DNA of 17,345 nt, taken from positions 1-17,345 of IMG/VR virus record IMGVR_UViG_2690316028_000014; one strand, 5' to 3'. Position numbers and translations under genes: made by a program. Positions 3,691-17,345 of this stretch are shown one piece after another. The stretch is from a virus. Lineage: Duplodnaviria > Heunggongvirae > Uroviricota > Caudoviricetes. The notes below the pieces were generated by a model. That model was not told the origin of the DNA, did no database searches, and saw only the letters and a program-made list of their open reading frames with translations. The first letter of the stretch is position 1; each line of letters opens with the position of its first letter.

Positions 3691-3912
3691 TCATGCTTCA
3701 AAATCTCCCTTCGCTCCATCCCGGTTAGAAATCAGGATGGCCAGCAGCAGCGACATGTTCGGTACCAGGCTCTCCTGCCAGCGGCTTACGGTTGATTTAT
3801 TTCTGCCAGCAACTTCAGCTATACGTGATATCCCCAGATCAGATATCTGGCTGCGTAACCAACTCTCTATCCTCCTAGCCTCCAATTTGTTGCGTGCGGT
3901 TGATGTCTCCAT
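3691..3912 (-). CDS. cII: CII-like transcriptional activator
   Basis: 73 aa; RIESWLRSQISDLGISRIAEVAGRNKSTVSRWQESLVPNMSLLLAIL parallels the lambda CII HTH core as recalled; RBS AGAGGAAG; located downstream of cro. Confidence 0.75.
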   Translation of the reverse strand: METSTARNKLEARRIESWLRSQISDLGISRIAEVAGRNKSTVSRWQESLVPNMSLLLAILISNRDGAKGDFEA

Positions 3913-3950
3913 TTGCGATACTTCCTCTGATTTAATTGGTTATGCCGCCA

Positions 3951-4184
3951 TTAGGCGGCGTTGTTGTCGATCGGTGATGGGAACAGCGTCGGTAAGTCAG
4001 GGCGAATCTGGTAGGCCTGAATTTCACCACCAGTTGCTTTCACGATGCTGTTCACATGCTCCGGAGAAACCTTTGCTTTGTTGTGTAGCCACTTGTAAAC
4101 CGCCTGCTGCGATACTGCGCATGCTTCACCAAGGGCTTTTTGAGACCCGACGATGGTAATGGCGGTTTTAATGGTTGGATTCAT
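3951..4184 (-). CDS. cro: Cro-like HTH repressor
   Basis: 77 aa HTH protein (QKALGEACAVSQQAVYKWL) transcribed divergently from cI across an operator-rich intergenic region; RBS GGAGG. Confidence 0.7.
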   Translation of the reverse strand: MNPTIKTAITIVGSQKALGEACAVSQQAVYKWLHNKAKVSPEHVNSIVKATGGEIQAYQIRPDLPTLFPSPIDNNAA

Positions 4185-4288
4185 AACAACCTCCGTAGTG
4201 AATATAAATGAAGAATAAAACTATGGTTGTATTTAGTCAACAACCATTTTCGTTTGATGAAATAAAACCACGGTTGTAGATTGCGTAT
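4185..4288. promoter_or_regulatory. Immunity switch (OR-like): back-to-back pR-like and pRM-like promoters with ACAACC/GGTTGT operator repeats
   Basis: 25-bp palindrome ATGGTTGT-N9-ACAACCAT at 4223-4247; further ACAACC/GGTTGT copies at 4187-4192 and 4273-4278; minus-strand promoter TTGACT (complement of 4235-4240), 17 bp, TATTCT (complement of 4212-4217); plus-strand TTGATG (4254-4259), 17 bp, TAGATT (4277-4282) ending 6 nt before the cI ATG with no SD. Confidence 0.6.
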
Positions 4289-5014
4289 ATGAAAACGACA
4301 CTCGCTGAAAGACTGAAGGAAGCCAGGACATTACGAGGCCTTACACAAAAGGCTCTCGGGGATCTGGTTGGGGTAAGCCAAGCTGCTATCCAGAAGATAG
4401 AAACGGGAAAAGCTAACCAGACAACAAAGTTGGTAGAGCTGGCAAATGCTTTGATGGTTAAACCTGAATGGCTAAGTTCAGGTGTTGGCCCCATGCGATC
4501 AGACGCTAAAGAATCAAATATTGGTCCTGAATCAGAGTGGGGAACTGTCGACGCATGGGACAAAAACACCCCGCTTCCTGCTGACGAGGTTGAAGTGCCT
4601 TTTCTTAAGGATATTGAATTTGCTTGTGGCGATGGACGCGTTCAATGCGAGGATCACAATGGCTTTAAGCTCAGGTTCTCAAAGGCAACCCTCCGACGCG
4701 TTGGAGCTAATACAGATGGGTCTGGCATCCTGTGCTTCCCTGCTACTGGCGACAGTATGGAACCCGTAATACCGGATGGTACGACTGTAGCCGTCGATAC
4801 GAACAACAAACGCATAGTTGATGGGAAACTGTATGCCATTGGTCAGACAGATGGCGGGAATGGTCAACTCAAGCGCATTAAACAGCTGTATCGTAAGCCA
4901 GGCGGAAAGCTAATTATCCGCAGCTACAACAATGAGGCCTACCCTGATGAAGAAGCTGACATTGATGATGTTGAGATAATCGGCCGCCTCTTCTGGTACT
5001 CGGTATTGCTGTAG
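4289..5014 (+). CDS. cI: CI-type prophage repressor (HTH_XRE N-domain plus S24 LexA-like peptidase C-domain)
   Basis: N-terminal HTH (LTQKALGDLVGVSQAAIQKIETGK); C-terminal GDSMEP with Ser156 and Lys195/198 at lambda-CI-like spacing; candidate Cys113-Gly114 autocleavage site. Confidence 0.9.
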   Translation: MKTTLAERLKEARTLRGLTQKALGDLVGVSQAAIQKIETGKANQTTKLVELANALMVKPEWLSSGVGPMRSDAKESNIGPESEWGTVDAWDKNTPLPADEVEVPFLKDIEFACGDGRVQCEDHNGFKLRFSKATLRRVGANTDGSGILCFPATGDSMEPVIPDGTTVAVDTNNKRIVDGKLYAIGQTDGGNGQLKRIKQLYRKPGGKLIIRSYNNEAYPDEEADIDDVEIIGRLFWYSVLL

Positions 5015-6371: not shown

Positions 6372-6376
6372 ATAAA

Positions 6377-6403
6377 CCCGGCCACCGCGCCGGGTTTTTA
6401 TTT
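6377..6403. terminator. Bidirectional Rho-independent terminator
   Basis: CCCGGC-cacc gc-GCCGGG hairpin (6377-6394) followed by TTTTTATTT on the plus strand and preceded by AAATAAATAAA (U-tract for the minus strand); ends both the plus-strand island and the minus-strand 68-aa ORF. Confidence 0.75.
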
Positions 6404-6604: not shown

Positions 6605-6688
6605 AGCCACCCCCTGATGTTTTTTGCAGCATAGCACCAATCTTTTATAAAAATAAATTCCTTTTAAATACAACCAAATAAAACCAAA

Positions 6689-6742
6689 ACAACTATAAAT
6701 ACAACTATTGTTGTTGACGATAAAACAACTATGGTTTTTAAT
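6689..6742 (+). promoter_or_regulatory. OL/pL-like operator-promoter cluster driving the early-left (recombination-int) operon
   Basis: Three direct ACAACTAT copies at 6689, 6701 and 6725 (12- and 24-bp phasing) plus an inverted GTTGTTG; promoter TTGACG (6714-6719), 17 bp, TTTAAT (6737-6742); shares CTATGGTT with the OR region. Confidence 0.5.
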
Positions 6743-7287
6743 AAGTCCATCGAAACGAAACATCGACAGCTGAGCGAAGTTAGCCAGCGGCGGACAGCAA
6801 GTCGCCTGCTTCTTTAACAAATCAGACTGAGTGACAGGCAAGCCGTAGCTCTCCTGGCAAAAAGAAATGGCACCCGATGGGATCGAGGTAAGCACTGAGT
6901 CCGTATGCGTACGGTAGGTGTAGAGGACCACGCTGCGATGAGCTGATAAGTCACTCAATTTGAAGCGCTCCGATGATGGGGCGCTGATTCAACTTAGAGG
7001 AGTGATTCCAATGAAGAACTAAAGCGGACAGACCGCAGCCTAAAGGCAATGCAGCAGTAATGATGCCGCCCTGAGTCGCCGAATGGCGAGCCTGTGTAGT
7101 GATGGGTCAAGGTTCTTATATCAAAACAAGCTCCGGTAAAGCAGCGCGAACGCCAGACGCGCACCGGTTATGAGCGGCGATGAGCGACAAGGTCTCAAGG
7201 GCATGTGCGCGGCCACTGCGAGAGTGTGGCGAAGTTTACCAGCAGCTCTTTGCGAGGGGCTGACGGTAAACAAAAAGAGGAGTGTGT

Positions 7288-7629
7288 ATGGCAGATAAAA
7301 AAACGGCGCCACTACTGCTTAACGTAGACGCCAGCGAGGTACTTACTCAGACCGGGGAGCTTTTAAAGTTACTTGAACTTCCAGCCAGTTCCTTTCAGGG
7401 AATTCCTGAGCATGTCGTCGATCTGTTTTTTGACCGTGTCCGTGGCCTGATTGACAACATCGTCCTTAGTGATTTCTCGACCACAGTCAGCACAACTGAC
7501 GCCGGTGAAATTTGTCTCAAAGTCAAAATCATCGGGCTGGTTGAACATCTCACTTCCGCAGTCAGGGCACACGGTCCGCATGGTTTGCATGAATATATCC
7601 TTTCTACTGTTGGGGAGATTAAAGAGTAA
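7288..7629 (+). CDS. Hypothetical protein (113 aa), first ORF of the early-left operon; mutually exclusive with the antisense zinc-ribbon ORF
   Basis: Strong RBS GAGGAG 5 nt before the ATG at 7288; on the strand transcribed from the pL-like promoter; Leu codons mostly CTT/TTA, so it could be a shadow of the minus-strand ORF. Confidence 0.35.
   Translation: MADKKTAPLLLNVDASEVLTQTGELLKLLELPASSFQGIPEHVVDLFFDRVRGLIDNIVLSDFSTTVSTTDAGEICLKVKIIGLVEHLTSAVRAHGPHGLHEYILSTVGEIKE
7369..7590 (-). CDS. Candidate zinc-ribbon protein (73 aa), antisense to the 7288-7629 ORF
   Basis: CPDCG-(19 aa)-CADCG four-Cys motif; RBS AAAGGA 7 nt before the ATG at 7588-7590; host-preferred codons; the Arg-rich N-terminal extension in the track (to 7821) is rejected. 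Confidence 0.35.
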   Translation of the reverse strand: MQTMRTVCPDCGSEMFNQPDDFDFETNFTGVSCADCGREITKDDVVNQATDTVKKQIDDMLRNSLKGTGWKFK

Positions 7630-14499: not shown

Positions 14500-14847
14500 A
14501 TGGACGAAGAAGTATTTACCAGAGATGAGGCCGCCGCCTTCCTTAAAGTGGATAAAGGCACGATTGCCCAGTGGATAAAGTCCGGTCGCCTGGCTGCTAC
14601 CCGAAAAAATCCACATAAGAAAAAAAGCCCATACCTGATCTGCAAAACAGACTGTATTGCGGCAGTGAAGAACCCGATCCACAATCAACCTGTGAATGCG
14701 GTTGATGTGCAGGAGGATAAAGCATGTCAATCAAACAACGTGCCGGTACGTGGCACTGCGACTTCGTTACGCCTGGTGGAAGTCGAATTAGACGGTCTCT
14801 TGGGACAACGGACAAAAGGCAAGCGCAGGAGCTCTATGATCAGCTGA
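14500..14847 (+). CDS. xis: Excisionase (Xis/AlpA-type HTH)
   Basis: N-terminal [26 protein letters not shown] matches the excisionase-family HTH; directly upstream of int, overlapping its start by 124 nt in another frame. Confidence 0.6.
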
Positions 14848-15887
14848 AAGCTGAAGCATGGCGAGTTGATAAGATGGGGGAGTTTAAGCCGCGAACGTTC
14901 GATGAAGCGTGCGTTCGCTGGCTTAACGAAAAGCAGCACAAGAAAAGCCTGGACGATGACAAAAGCCGGATCGGATTCTGGAGGATGCACTTCAAAGGAA
15001 TGGACCTGTCAGCAATCACGGAAGACAGGATCTTGTCGGCGGTGAGTTCGATGGTTAATCGCAAACATCGAATGAACTGGGAGGCTAAACGGGACAGCCT
15101 GCTGCGAAGAGGTAAGCCGGTTCCTGAATTTAAGGATAAACCAGCGTCGCTGGCGACGAAGGCGACGCACCTTGCTTTCATCCGGGCGCTGTTACGATGC
15201 GCGGCCAACGAATGGCGATGGATAGCCAAAGCGCCGAACATCAAATGCCCGGTGCCGAAAAATAAGCGTATTCGCTGGCTAACCAAAGAGGAAGCGGCGA
15301 ACCTGATCCGGGAGCTTCCCGAGCATATGAAGCCAGTTGTTATTTTTGCACTGGCGACAGGGCTGCGCAGATCGAACATCACCGATCTGGAGTGGTCACA
15401 AATTGATATGCAGAGGAAGGTCGCGTGGATTCACCCCGAGGACGCGAAAGCAGGAAGGGCGATTGGGGTCGCCCTGAACGAATCGTCCTGTAAGGTGCTG
15501 CGGGAGCAACTGGGGAAACATAACCGTTGGGTCTTTGTTCACACTGAATCATCCGTTCGCCCGGATGGAACGAGAACAAAGGCAGTGCGCAAAATGCGGT
15601 CTGATGCTAACACGGCATGGCGCGCGGCGTTAAGGCGGGCGGGAATAGAAAATTTCCGCTTCCATGACCTGCGGCACACCTGGGCAAGCTGGCTTGTACA
15701 GTCCGGCGTGCCACTCAGTGCGCTACAGGAAATGGGCGGGTGGGAAAGTATCGAGATGGTGCAGCGTTATGCGCATCTGGCACCGAATCACCTGACGCAG
15801 CATGCCATGCAAATCGACTCATTCCTGGCGGGGAATGGCACAAATATGGCACAAGGCGCTTTTGCTGAACTGGTGAATATCGCGTGA
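14724..15887 (+). CDS. int: Tyrosine integrase (P22-like)
   Basis: 387 aa; RBS AGGAGG; catalytic signature [15 protein letters not shown] ... VQRYAHL (R-H-R-Y family); ends 15 bp from the tRNA-Thr 3' end. Confidence 0.9.
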
Positions 15888-15901: not shown

Positions 15902-15977
15902 TGGTGCCGATAAGAGGAGTCGAACCTCCGACCTTCGCATTACGAATGCGCTGCTCTACCAACTGAGCTATATCGGC
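15902..15977 (-). tRNA. thrW: tRNA-Thr (anticodon CGU)
   Basis: Reverse complement reads GCCGATATAGCTCAGTTGGTAGAGCAGCGCATTCGTAATGCGAAGGTCGGAGGTTCGACTCCTCTTATCGGCACCA: 7-bp acceptor stem, D-loop AGCTCAGTTGGTAGAGC, anticodon loop TTCGTAA, T-arm GGTTCGA, encoded CCA. Confidence 0.9.
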
Positions 15978-16091: not shown

Positions 16092-17345
16092 TTACGCACG
16101 AATGGTGTAATCACCAATGCCGATCCACTTGTAAGTGGTCAGTGCTTCCAGCCCCATTGGGCCACGCGCGTGGAGTTTTTGTGTGCTTACCGCCACTTCC
16201 GCACCCAGACCAAACTGGCCGCCGTCGGTAAAACGCGTAGAGGCGTTAACGTAAACAGCGGACGAATCCACTTCGTTAACAAAACGCTGGGCGTTGCGCA
16301 TATCGCGGGTCAGGATCGCATCGGAGTGTTGTGTGCCGTGTTCACGAATATGGGCGATGGCATCGTCAAGATCGCTGACGATTTTGACGTTCAAATCTAA
16401 TGACAGAAACTCATCGTCATACTCTTCGGCTTTAACAGCAACCACCTTCGCAGGGCCTGCCTGCAACTGCGCCAGTGCAGCTGCATCTGCGTGTAATGTC
16501 ACGCCGCTTTCCGCCATTTGTTTGCTTAATGCGGGCAGGAAGCTATCGGCGATGTTTTTATTCACCAGCAACGTTTCAACCGTATTACATGTGCTCGGTC
16601 GCTGAGTTTTCGCGTTGACGATCACTTTTAATGCTTCAGCGATCTCTACACTTTCATCAACGTAAATATGGCATACGCCTATACCACCTGTGATCACCGG
16701 GATTGTCGACTGTTCACGGCACAGTTTATGCAAACCAGCGCCACCACGCGGGATCAGCATGTCGATGTATTTATCCATACGCAGCATTTCACTGACCAGC
16801 GCACGGTCAGGATTATCAATCGCCTGCACGGCACCCGCCGGTAAGCCGCAGGATTTCAGGGCGTCCTGAATCACCGCCACCGTTGCAGCGTTAGTGCGAC
16901 ACGTTTCTTTGCCACCGCGCAGGATCACCGCATTACCGGTTTTCAGGCACAGCGAAGCGACATCAACCGTCACGTTCGGGCGCGCTTCATAAATCACGCC
17001 AATAACCCCCAGCGGTACGCGACGACGCTCAAGACGCAGGCCGCTGTCCAGTACGCCGCCATCGATTACCTGCCCCACCGGATCGGCGAGGTTGCACACC
17101 TGACGTACATCGTCGGCAATGCCTTTCAGCCGTGCGGGCGTCAGTGCCAGACGGTCAAGCATCGCTTCGCTAAGGCCATTGGCTCGCGCGTCAGCAACAT
17201 CCTGGGCGTTAGCGTTGAGGATGATTTCGCTTTGTGCTTCCAGTTCATCGGCGATTTTTTCCAGCACGCGATTTTTTTCGCGGCTGGAGAGTTGCGCTAA
17301 TTTATACGAGGCTTGCTTCGCAGCAATGCCCATTTGTTCCAGCAT
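16092..17345 (-). CDS. proA: Gamma-glutamyl phosphate reductase
   Basis: Complete 417-aa ORF ([30 protein letters not shown]...) recognised as enterobacterial ProA; start codon is the last three bases of the window; host gene flanking the prophage. Confidence 0.95.

Follow-up and report, generated by a model that had tools for sequence, protein, structure and literature searches.

Within the 17,345-nt stretch of viral DNA analyzed here (hereafter, the window), an initial annotation proposed that the spacer at 4185-4288 is a lambda-like bistable switch with ACAAC-type operators and an apparently leaderless cI transcript. The locus raises two questions: which sequences form the operator units, and where the repressor message begins. 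Site anatomy, promoter geometry, and homologies together with their conservation are open to direct observation, and they provide the answers that follow.

The window carries a lambda-type immunity region

The gene content bore out the proposal of a lambda-type cI/cro switch: cro and cI diverge from a 104 bp spacer with back-to-back promoters, and genes for cII, O, and a DnaC-like loader lie behind cro. The genes and associated elements are:

3691..3912, minus strand: cII-family activator gene (Pfam Phage_CII, 2e-10)
3890..3922, plus strand: candidate PRE read from the sequence, TTGC-N6-TTGA (3890-3903) followed by the -10-like GATACT (3917-3922)
3951..4184, minus strand: cro-like gene, 77 aa, YdaS/P22_Cro-type HTH with recognition helix VSQQAVYKW
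4289..5014, plus strand: cI repressor gene, 241 aa (Pfam HTH_3, 2e-11; Peptidase_S24, 3e-16)
6807..6816, plus strand: boxA-like TGCTTCTTTA in the PL leader

The cro product matches Pfam YdaS_toxin (1e-18) and P22_Cro, belongs to PHROG 35 (transcriptional repressor), and aligns with the Cro proteins of relatives. Nucleotide matches and alignments show that the cI gene is chimeric, its two parts joining around 4453-4535. Its N-domain is 434-repressor-like, with alignments placing the helix at S30-Q31-A32-A33-I34-Q35-K36; a phmmer search of the PDB matched residues 5-67 without gaps to the 434 repressor (1per_L, 4.7e-7) and also found 434 Cro (8.9e-7). The C-domain is an S24 autopeptidase of the phi80/HK225 type, in which FACGDG, GDSMEP, and LKRIK align with phi80 and HK225 cI; Pfam and alignment identify Ser/Lys dyad motifs and a predicted cleavage site.

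The candidate PRE lies within the first cII codons and points toward cI. Its two elements, TTGC-N6-TTGA and GATACT, are also present in two relatives (three loci in all), and promoter function would follow by analogy to lambda, in which the cII site is TTGC-N6-TTGC. On the other side of cI, the boxA-like element aligns with the annotated putative nutL boxA of phi80. No phi80 N homologue was detected by tblastn and no N-like ORF was present between 6743 and 7287; Rfam returned a tRNA as the sole match in the whole window and no match at E up to 1 within region 6700-7320. The prophage also has int, the rec genes, and a tRNA attachment site. Taken together with the analyses below, we consider it quite probable that this region serves a phi80/HK225-like lambdoid prophage as its immunity switch, using 14-bp ACAAC-N4-GTTGT dyads and a putatively leaderless cI mRNA.

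Predicted operators at OR and OL are 14-bp dyads

Judged by their sequence, the true operator units, and the predicted binding sites, are 14-bp dyads of the form ACAAC-N4-GTTGT, spaced 23-24 bp apart as in lambda. The promoters and dyads, with scores from a position weight matrix (PWM), are:

4212..4240, minus strand: PR, -35 TTGACT (4240-4235), 17-nt spacer, -10 TATTCT (4217-4212), called by promoter scan at 9/12
4254..4282, plus strand: PRM-like promoter, -35 TTGATG (4254-4259), 17-nt spacer, -10 TAGATT (4277-4282), read from the sequence
6714..6742, plus strand: PL-like promoter, -35 TTGACG (6714-6719), 17-nt spacer, -10 TTTAAT (6737-6742), read from the sequence
4217..4230, no strand assigned: OR1, AAAACTATGGTTGT, 21.9 bits, within the PR spacer and sharing 1 nt with the PR -10
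4240..4253, no strand assigned: OR2, ACAACCATTTTCGT, 14.2 bits, the weakest, between the PR -35 and the PRM -35 and abutting both
4264..4277, no strand assigned: OR3, AAAACCACGGTTGT, 17.3 bits, within the PRM spacer, its final T being the first base of the PRM -10
6701..6714, no strand assigned: OL2, ACAACTATTGTTGT, a perfect dyad, 21.3 bits, its final T being the first base of the PL -35
6725..6738, no strand assigned: OL1, ACAACTATGGTTTT, 22.1 bits, within the PL spacer and overlapping the -10

The PWM was trained on 25 sites from five other phages, with the window left out, and ranked these five operators 1-5 of the window's 17,332 positions (22.1, 21.9, 21.3, 17.3, and 14.2 bits), compared to a mean maximum of 10.8 bits in shuffled sequences. 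A search for ACAACNNNNGTTGT with at most one mismatch yielded 5 matches, all in OR or OL (0.40 expected; 0/200 shuffles reach 5); these 5 include a 14-mer at 4186 in the cro ribosome site, and the weak OR2 requires 2 mismatches. Across 60 half-sites, positions 1, 3, 4, and 5 are nearly invariant and the centre is variable.

The OR centres lie at 4223.5, 4246.5, and 4270.5, which places them 23 and 24 bp apart (about 2.2 helical turns). Among the six phage lineages, phiEt88 has its dyads spaced 24/24/24 bp and the other five 23/24/24 bp, and the OR1-OR2 spacing stays at 22-24 bp across all 16 lineages compared, which include 10 prophages of other genera. OR1 was found in every one of these lineages, in 10 of them outside the search pattern; the ten genome loci were picked by a pattern containing OR2 and OR3, so the conservation of those two sites there is by construction. 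PR is likewise conserved in relatives. The operators are kept while flanks fall to 68-79% identity across genera.

The OL cluster holds two full dyads and orphan half-sites

At OL, about 2.46 kb from OR, two full dyads lie over the PL-like promoter, and the third element consists of orphan half-sites only:

6670..6695, plus strand: orphan half-sites, all in the same orientation, upstream of OL2, ACAACCA at 6670, AAAACCA at 6680, and ACAACTA at 6689

None of these half-sites is paired, and scored as dyads they give -7.1 (6670), -11.6 (6680), and -1.3 bits (6689). An ACAACC half-site occurs upstream of OL2 in all six phage lineages, at a variable distance. A full OL3 was sought and rejected, as no 14-mer upstream of OL2 scored above 4 bits. 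Because OL has only two full dyads, lambda-style 3+3 looping cannot be assumed. The distal OL operator annotated in phi80 also lies upstream of OL2, where it takes the form of a direct repeat; in the alignment, the window half-sites at 6670 and 6689 line up with ATCAAC copies of phi80, one of which is inside that distal operator. The PL-like promoter coincides in alignment with the annotated pL of phi80, and was not reported by the promoter scan, which demands an A at -10 position 2.

Alternative readings of the operators

The repeats at OR had originally been organized around a 25-bp palindrome, and several of the underlying observations hold. The sequence ATGGTTGT-N9-ACAACCAT is exact at 4223-4247, where shuffles expect 0.07 matches even at 3 mismatches; CTATGGTT is common to OR and OL, at 4221 and 6729; and ACAAC/GTTGT pentamers number 4 in 4185-4288 against 0.24 expected. 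The additional copies are all there (ACAACC at 4186 and 4240, GGTTGT at 4225 and 4272), but the 4240 copy meets the PR -35 by one base only. Similarly, ACAACTAT does appear three times in OL (6689, 6701, and 6725), but the copies are 12 and 24 bp apart, only loosely in helical phase, and the one at 6689 is an orphan half-site. What failed is the palindrome as an operator unit, as it comprises only the right half of OR1 and the left half of OR2. The 4186 copy belongs to a cro ribosome-binding module that lambda also has:

4185..4199, minus strand: cro translation-initiation region, Shine-Dalgarno GGAGG at 4190-4194, containing ACAACC at 4186 and a dyad-like 14-mer of 6.9 PWM bits

We weighed two alternatives to the dyad model of OR and OL. 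In one, the functional OR operator would be the 25-bp palindrome itself, with half-sites 15 bp apart facing outward, and OL would consist of three phased ACAACTAT direct repeats; its appeal is an exact match that is improbable by chance, retained in PhiR26_1, together with a threefold repeat confined to OL. Comparison with relatives makes this extremely unlikely. The 8-nt palindrome arms are reduced to GTTGT/ACAAC in a Klebsiella phage, and Salmonella phage UPF_BP1 keeps the dyads with a broken palindrome (GGTTGT...AACACT). Its spacer is 10 nt in Erwinia phiEt88 and in Rosenbergiella and Rouxiella loci and 8 nt in an Arsenophonus locus, yet dyad and promoter positions remain fixed in all of these. 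Whole dyads are what is repeated within the window, as 18-nt direct repeats, between OR1 and OR3 (47 bp apart) and likewise between OL2 and OL1; the OL copy at 6689 is unpaired and in the Klebsiella phage carries a mutation (ACAGCC); and a half-site separation of 15 bp does not fit a 434-type dimer (PMC1636474). The other alternative accepts the dyads and adds a fourth OR operator that would cover the cro ribosome-binding site at 4186-4199, giving a 4+2 rather than a 3+3 arrangement, as reported for Stx1 phage H-19B, to which a passage in PMC8065619, citing Shi and Friedman 2001, attributes four OR sites. The 14-mer ACAACCTCCGTAGT is indeed 1 mismatch from the dyad, and a dyad with at most one mismatch covers the cro Shine-Dalgarno in 14/16 lineages, with either half able to be the perfect one. 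Against this, lambda CI reads a different sequence, yet ACAACCTCCTTAGT also precedes lambda cro (CAT-ACAACCTCCTTAGT), which argues for a shared ribosome-site module; at 6.9 bits the site scores lower than shuffled sequences do at their mean maximum; lineages place it anywhere from 27 to 32 bp from OR1; no bona fide site has a G+C-rich centre like its CTCC; and PA28, a Stx1 phage of the sister class described below, lacks a counterpart over the cro Shine-Dalgarno. The lambda module, the low score, and the variable spacing led us to downgrade this candidate, and we regard a fourth operator as improbable.

PRM geometry points to a leaderless cI message

The PRM-like promoter matches consensus at 8/12 and was not called by the promoter scan, for which the threshold is 9/12; its layout is identical in 16 lineages. 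As originally described, TAGATT (4277-4282) stands 6 nt before the cI ATG, separated by GCGTAT from the start codon at 4289, and no purine-rich stretch that could serve as a Shine-Dalgarno precedes cI. An in-frame TAG at 4277 fixes the cI start at 4289 and rules out an upstream start. The search pattern that yielded the 10 prophages of other genera left the -10, gap, and start unconstrained. In all 16 the -10 has the form TANNTT and overlaps the final T of OR3, the gap to the ATG is 6 nt in 14 and 7 nt in the other two, and the gap sequences are unrelated, none having a Shine-Dalgarno. The cI start codon is ATG without exception (16/16), while cro tolerates GTG.

This -10/ATG geometry is that of lambda, in which the PRM transcript starts at the cI AUG. 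Its retention in 16 lineages whose gap sequences are not retained strengthens the earlier proposal of a leaderless cI transcript, and the message probably starts at or beside A4289, with neither leader nor Shine-Dalgarno, as in lambda. In CP-933P, a leaderless cI-type regulator beside a YdaS-type Cro was identified by 5'-RACE (PMC8630535). Literature text searches for ACAAC-class phages returned primers and unrelated systems, and no binding, footprint, or 5'-end data. In phage 434, cI is preceded by roughly 30 untranslated nt that include a GAGG Shine-Dalgarno, and thus by a leader, showing that a leaderless message is not universal among 434-type repressors; a Shine-Dalgarno is also present in Yersinia phage YP3.

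A proposed working of the switch

From the anatomy of the locus we infer an occupancy order, cooperativity, activation, a transcription start site, and bistability, as follows. CI (a 434-type HTH joined to a LexA-like S24 domain) and the YdaS-type Cro would both read the 14-bp dyads, in which the outer 5+5 bases are specified while any base may occupy the inner 4. The predicted intrinsic order of occupancy is OR1 > OR3 > OR2. In a lysogen, CI would occupy the strong OR1 and then, cooperatively, the weak OR2, turning PR off; from -42, CI at OR2 would activate the weak PRM (TTGATG-17-TAGATT), whose start at or next to A4289 would yield a cI mRNA lacking a leader and Shine-Dalgarno. At high CI levels OR3 would be filled and PRM turned off, and OL2 and OL1, 2.46 kb away, would likewise cover PL. 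Induction would proceed by RecA-stimulated self-cleavage of CI, probably at the phi80-type Cys-Gly, and after CI loss Cro would bind the same sites and repress PRM.

Two further alternatives bear on this scheme. If TAGATT were no -10, or if transcription started elsewhere, cI would be translated in the absence of a Shine-Dalgarno from longer messages, initiated for example at the candidate PRE (3890-3922) or produced by read-through. The weak PRM score, the PRE-like element upstream, and the leader of the 434 cI message are consistent with this, but we consider it unlikely: the gap is strictly kept at 6-7 nt in 16 lineages while its sequence is not, the geometry equals that of lambda with its established start at the AUG, OR2 at -42.5 occupies the position needed for activation, a lysogen without cII needs a maintenance promoter, and ATG is used as the start codon in every case. 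The remaining possibility is that the prophage is defective and the locus an inactive remnant, its sites kept by descent only and no longer forming a working switch. No recognisable N gene lies downstream of PL, and the exact variant was found in only one complete E. coli genome. This explanation nonetheless appears very unlikely, as every switch ORF is intact and catalytic motifs are present, the operators have been retained while flanks diverged across genera to the extent given above, the free-living phages PhiR26_1, Turner, and IdasGreatGrand have the same OR, and the prophage has its int and rec genes and tRNA attachment site.

Specificity and distribution of the ACAAC class

The initial annotation held that these repeats define the immunity specificity of the prophage, which is reasonable, with the refinement that the predicted specificity element is the ACAAC half-site as read by helix SQAAIQK. 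Among ACAAC phages, the cI helix is SQAAIQK (SQANIQK in phiEt88, TQASIQK in a Xenorhabdus prophage) and the Cro helix is SQQAV or SQAAV; phages with ATAAC-N4-GTTAT operators (PA28 and HK639) have SQPAIQK in cI and SQPAV in Cro. Helix and half-site co-vary between the two classes in these alignments. A more far-reaching and rather doubtful proposal would make ACAAC and ATAAC a natural specificity-swap pair, in which Ala/Gln versus Pro at helix position 2, in CI as well as Cro, would set C versus T at operator position 2. It would also depart from the lambda 3+3 arrangement, with two full OL sites, the orphan half-sites serving as a non-canonical distal site like that of phi80, and perhaps a further weak site at the cro ribosome-binding site like that ascribed to H-19B in the passage cited above.

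When half-sites were compared with known immunity groups, the region emerged as a relative of imm434 but not a member (SQAAIQK versus TQQSIEQ; fifth base C versus ACAAG/ACAAT...TTGT), and the window prophage and 434 are probably heteroimmune, as judged from these sequences. It also falls outside imm80, as the operators and cI N-domain differ and only the C-domain and OL flanks are phi80/HK225-like.

This OR type is present in 1425/5426 complete E. coli genomes (about 26%), mostly in prophages with a PhiR26_1-type OR, and the class also extends to ten or more further Enterobacterales genera, again in prophages. E. coli KCJ3K291 has an OR identical to that of the window. Literature searches returned no published operator description for the ACAAC class. 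The operator map is concrete and testable and permits prediction of homo- and heteroimmunity among these prophages, and many lineages with a putatively leaderless cI are added to the few known leaderless repressor genes; the general understanding of such switches is unchanged by this result.

Comparison with known systems

Similar to lambda, the window has divergent cI and cro, three operators 23-24 bp apart, and an OL cluster about 2.4 kb away. The lambda OR centres lie at -19, -42, and -66 from the cI ATG, and those of the window at -65.5, -42.5, and -18.5 for OR1, OR2, and OR3. TAGATT, the 6-nt gap, and ATG are identical in the two, neither with a Shine-Dalgarno, as is the cro ribosome-site module ACAACCTCC. 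The systems differ in that lambda operators are of a 17-bp TATCACCGC type while those of the window are 14-bp ACAAC-N4-GTTGT, that the window CI N-domain is HTH_3/434-like and its Cro of the YdaS/P22-Cro fold type, and that the window OL has two full sites and no N gene was recognised in the window.

The closest solved homologue of the cI N-domain is the 434 repressor/Cro (PDB 1per, 2or1, 3cro). Each 434 operator spans 14 bp, of which the outer 5+5 are contacted and the central 4 are not (PMC1636474), and the window shares this 5+4+5 layout, the outer ACAA...TTGT, a Gln as the first residue of the recognition helix, and a helix motif common to cI and Cro. It differs in the helix (QAAIQK versus QQSIEQ), in having C as the fifth base, and in spacing (23/24 bp versus 22/23 bp).

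By contrast to the N-domain, the cI C-domain is nearly identical to that of HK225 and close to that of phi80, including the FACGDG region; the OL flanks, PL position, and boxA are homologous to phi80/HK225, and downstream genes resemble HK225_042 to 044. The phi80 operators are 19-bp and of the AATC(A/C)ACA type, its cI has a GGAGG Shine-Dalgarno and a leader, its cI N-domain and cro are unrelated in specificity, and phi80 N is absent from the window.

Stx1 phages (PA28 and others) and HK639 form a sister class, with cI N-domains 56-61% identical to that of the window. They share the 5+4+5 dyads, the three-site OR, and the order of -10 (TAGATT or TATATT), 6 nt, and ATG, and differ in their ATAAC half-site and in the helices SQPAIQK of cI and SQPAV of Cro. 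H-19B, with the four OR sites stated in the PMC8065619 passage, may belong to this ATAAC sister class. Finally, PaaR2/YdaS of CP-933P (E. coli O157:H7) differs from the window pair in that PaaR2 has no S24 domain and heads a toxin-antitoxin operon, and in its four 18-bp GTTTAGTAA-type palindromes, yet it resembles the window in being lambdoid, in its divergent gene arrangement, and in pairing a YdaS-type Cro with a cI-like regulator, which 5'-RACE showed to be leaderless in CP-933P (PMC8630535).

Operators of the immunity region

The genes around OR, the operator cluster between cro and cI, constitute a lambdoid immunity region, and the segment around 4185-4288 reads CAT(cro)-AACAACCTCCGTAGTGAATATAAATGAAGAATAAAACTATGGTTGTATTTAGTCAACAACCATTTTCGTTTGATGAAATAAAACCACGGTTGTAGATTGCGTAT-ATG(cI). 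Its main features are as follows.

Features of the immunity region
Minus strand: genes for replication protein O and a DnaC/IstB-like loader
3691-3912, minus strand: cII
3951-4184, minus strand: cro, YdaS/P22-Cro type
Minus strand: PR, the cro promoter, TTGACT-17-TATTCT
4217-4230, 4240-4253 and 4264-4277: OR1, OR2 and OR3, centres 23 and 24 bp apart
4254-4259 and 4277-4282, plus strand: PRM, the cI promoter, TTGATG, 17-nt spacer, TAGATT, then 6 nt to the ATG at 4289
From 4289, plus strand: cI, HTH_3 and Peptidase_S24 domains

Rightward of cI lie gam, a gene for a RecT/Bet-type annealing protein, exo, and genes for a DNA methyltransferase and an integrase (14724-15887, plus strand), directly followed by a tRNA gene (15905-15977, minus strand) that is likely the attachment site; a host-like ORF begins beyond it at 16092. 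A G+C-rich hairpin right after the cro stop, between cro and cII (3944-3960, GCCGCC-ATTA-GGCGGC), is kept by two relatives and may represent an element like nutR/boxB or tR1.

With at most one mismatch, ACAAC-N4-GTTGT matched the window five times (4186, 4217, 4264, 6701 and 6725), always inside OR or OL, the second cluster about 2.46 kb away over the promoter PL; 0.40 matches were expected in shuffles, none of 200 reaching five, and a second mismatch added 4240. An independent repeat search returned OR1/OR3 and OL2/OL1 as 18-nt direct repeats of the whole unit, with OL1 and OL2 24 bp apart. The same five sites (OR1 to OR3, OL1 and OL2) occupy the same promoter positions in five phages with cI N-domains 58-87% identical: E. 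coli PhiR26_1, Klebsiella ST101-KPC2phi6.1, Providencia PSTCR7lys, Salmonella UPF_BP1 and Erwinia phiEt88. A weight matrix trained on the 25 sites of these phages, window excluded, placed the window's five sites at ranks 1-5 of 17,332 positions (OL1 22.1, OR1 21.9, OL2 21.3, OR3 17.3 and OR2 14.2 bits; shuffle mean maximum 10.8). Half-sites follow the profile A-(C/a)-A-A-C-Y-A, with positions 1, 3, 4 and 5 nearly invariant and the centre variable. This layout is that of the phage 434 operators, which are 14 bp long and contacted at the outer 5+5 bases and not at the inner four (PMC1636474). An operator-like 14-mer inside cI (4421-4434, ACAACAAAGTTGGT, in QTTKLV codons) scores 10.3 bits, the level of chance maxima, and a similar 14-mer stands at the same place in PhiR26_1.

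Ten more prophages (from Arsenophonus, Kosakonia, Serratia, Klebsiella grimontii, Xenorhabdus, Enterobacter, Morganella, Rouxiella and, twice, Rosenbergiella) were found by searching one genome per species with a pattern spanning OR2 to OR3 only. All 16 lineages (the window, the five phages and these prophages) have OR1, 22-24 bp away from OR2, although the search pattern left it free.

The initial annotation, whose general lambda-like interpretation was right, needed correction in its operator anatomy: it had described OR by a 25-bp palindrome, ATGGTTGT-N9-ACAACCAT at 4223-4247, with extra ACAACC/GGTTGT copies. The palindrome is exact, and shuffles expect only 0.07 matches even with three mismatches. 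It nevertheless breaks or changes in relatives, whereas the dyads and their promoter positions are retained in all of these variants: its arms are reduced to pentamers in the Klebsiella phage, its spacer is 10 nt in the phiEt88, Rosenbergiella and Rouxiella loci, and in UPF_BP1 it is broken because the strong half of OR2 sits on the other side. The palindrome is a by-product that arises where the right half of OR1 and the left half of OR2 flank the PR -35.

The ACAACC at 4186 belongs to a one-mismatch dyad that covers the cro Shine-Dalgarno sequence; 14 of the 16 lineages have a similar one. It brings to mind H-19B, for which four OR sites are reported (PMC8065619). We read it as chiefly a ribosome-binding module of cro, because lambda shares it (an identical ACAACCTCCTTAGT precedes lambda cro), its matrix score is low (6.9 bits), its spacing to OR1 varies among lineages (27-32 bp) and its centre, CTCC, is atypical. 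The whole cro ribosome-binding region (4184-4199, CAT-(A)ACAACCTCC(G/T)TAGT) is nearly base for base that of lambda (compared locus L025), despite different operators and Cro families.

A probably leaderless maintenance transcript of cI

As had been noted from the sequence, the last base of TAGATT (4277-4282) lies 6 nt upstream of the cI ATG, and no Shine-Dalgarno sequence is present. The in-frame TAG at 4277 excludes a cI start upstream of 4289, and setting TAGATT at -12 to -7 gives A4289 as the predicted +1. Relative to A4289 the OR centres lie at -18.5, -42.5 and -65.5; in the annotated lambda record they lie at -19, -42 and -66, with TAGATT-TAACGT-ATG. The lambda PRM transcript begins at the AUG.

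The -10 is TANNTT in all 16 lineages, one T being common to OR3; cI starts with ATG in all 16 (phiEt88 cro starts with GTG), and its N-terminus, MKTTLAERL, is kept. Fourteen lineages have 6 nt between -10 and start and two have 7 nt, and the sequences of this gap are unrelated (GCGTAT, TGATCT, GAAAAG, CGCGGA, TTGGGG and others). A transcript beginning at the AUG predicts this pattern, a kept gap length with free sequence and no room for a Shine-Dalgarno sequence, and we consider it quite probable that the maintenance cI transcript is leaderless. A leaderless cI-type regulator beside a YdaS-type Cro has been mapped by 5'-RACE in CP-933P (PMC8630535). In imm434 about 30 nt, including a GAGG Shine-Dalgarno sequence, precede cI, and phi80 and Yersinia phage YP3 have a Shine-Dalgarno sequence there too, which cautions against generalising leaderless cI.

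OL and the PL leader

The 8-mer CTATGGTT was recovered, as previously described, in both OR (4221) and OL (6729). Three copies of ACAACTAT had been proposed for OL, and all are present (6689, 6701 and 6725), but the one at 6689 is an orphan half-site, mutated in the Klebsiella phage. OL2 is a perfect dyad whose last T doubles as part of the -35 TTGACG, and OL1 occupies the PL spacer and overlaps the -10 TTTAAT; OL2/OL1 on PL thus mirror OR2/OR1 on PR. Upstream of OL2, operator-like sequence is limited to orphan half-sites, all in direct orientation (6670, 6680 and 6689), with negative dyad scores but, as half-sites, among the window's best; an ACAACC half-site lies upstream of OL2 in six of six phages, at varying distance. 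In phi80 and HK225, whose flanks are homologous to those of the window OL, pL and three annotated CI sites show the same arrangement relative to pL. Running divergently from PL, between a bidirectional terminator (6374-6397) and OL, is a conserved small phage gene (6398-6607, minus strand, 69 aa, phrog_3975, like HK225_042), whose promoter would be located within or beside the orphan half-site region.

The 545-nt PL leader (6743-7287) holds no N gene: tblastn found no phi80-N homologue, and there is no plausible small basic ORF. Only its first 81 nt, including a boxA-like TGCTTCTTTA (6807-6816), match phi80, HK225 and KCJ3K291. Between this site and the first ORF (7288) lies a conserved element, apparently non-coding and about 225 nt long (7004-7246, plus strand), with at least 119 copies in IMG/VR viral contigs. 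All copies listed are sense to the operon and lie either in PL leaders, about 1.5 kb past a cI-like gene and upstream of gam/bet/exo, or directly after a Q antiterminator gene. The 5' part has a conserved Shine-Dalgarno sequence, an ATG, a mini-ORF (mostly three codons) and a stop, and 1-nt indels among copies argue against a coding element. Helix 1 shows compensatory changes at four of six pairs, and across the whole structure both sides had changed in 25 cells, where shuffles gave 4.1 (0/500 reaching 25). An Rfam search of the element matched no family; in HK639 the same slot carries an annotated putL-like antiterminator RNA. The element could be an antitermination RNA cassette acting in cis, and it may merit separate study.

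Mosaicism and a proposed switch

Against the PhiR26_1 group, cro, OR and the cI N-domain show about 79% nucleotide identity (N-domain 87% amino-acid identity), while cI beyond about 4525-4535 shares 96% nucleotide identity with HK225, and its C-domain is phi80-like. cI is a domain chimera joined in the hinge, around 4453-4535, and the OL operators of the N-domain's specificity are set within a phi80/HK225-like backbone. One complete E. coli genome (KCJ3K291) has the exact window OR; an OR 88-89% identical to it is carried by 1425 of 5426 genomes, one instance being that of an O157:H7 prophage.

We propose that CI dimers would occupy OR1 and then, cooperatively, the weak OR2, repressing PR and activating PRM from -42; surplus CI would fill OR3, and OL1 and OL2 would shut PL. 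SOS-induced self-cleavage would remove CI, leaving the same dyads to Cro. During establishment, a candidate cII-dependent promoter, PRE (TTGC-N6-TTGA and GATACT, 3890-3922), would supply a leadered cI mRNA.

Matched helices and operators

As a lambdoid switch the region is ordinary; its immunity class is very common yet uncharacterised. The nearest solved relatives of the cI N-domain are 434 repressor (4.7e-7) and 434 Cro (8.9e-7), aligned without gaps over residues 5-67. Recognition helices were compared at cI residues 30-36 and Cro residues 24-30 in five loci (L009, L010, L012, L013 and L024). Most ACAAC-class repressors share VSQAAIQK (SQANIQK in phiEt88, TQASIQK in the Xenorhabdus prophage), with SQQAV or SQAAV in Cro; the window cI has S30-Q31-A32-A33-I34-Q35-K36. 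A sister class (Stx1 phage PA28, HK639) pairs cI SQPAIQK and Cro SQPAV with ATAAC-N4-GTTAT operators, and a third (BTP1, PhiR30_1) pairs AQPTIWR and (K/A)QPTVWR with ATACG-type dyads. Within phages the CI and Cro helices run SQAAIQK with SQQAV, SQPAIQK with SQPAV, AQPTIWR with QPTVWR, and TQQSIEQ with KQQSIQL. The helices of a phage's CI and Cro are therefore matched, and operator position 2 varies with helix position 2 (ACAAC versus ATAAC). In the 434 co-crystals A1 is read by Gln28, the counterpart of window Q31, and base pair 2 by residue 29; by analogy, these contacts would fit the pairing of helix position 2 with operator position 2.
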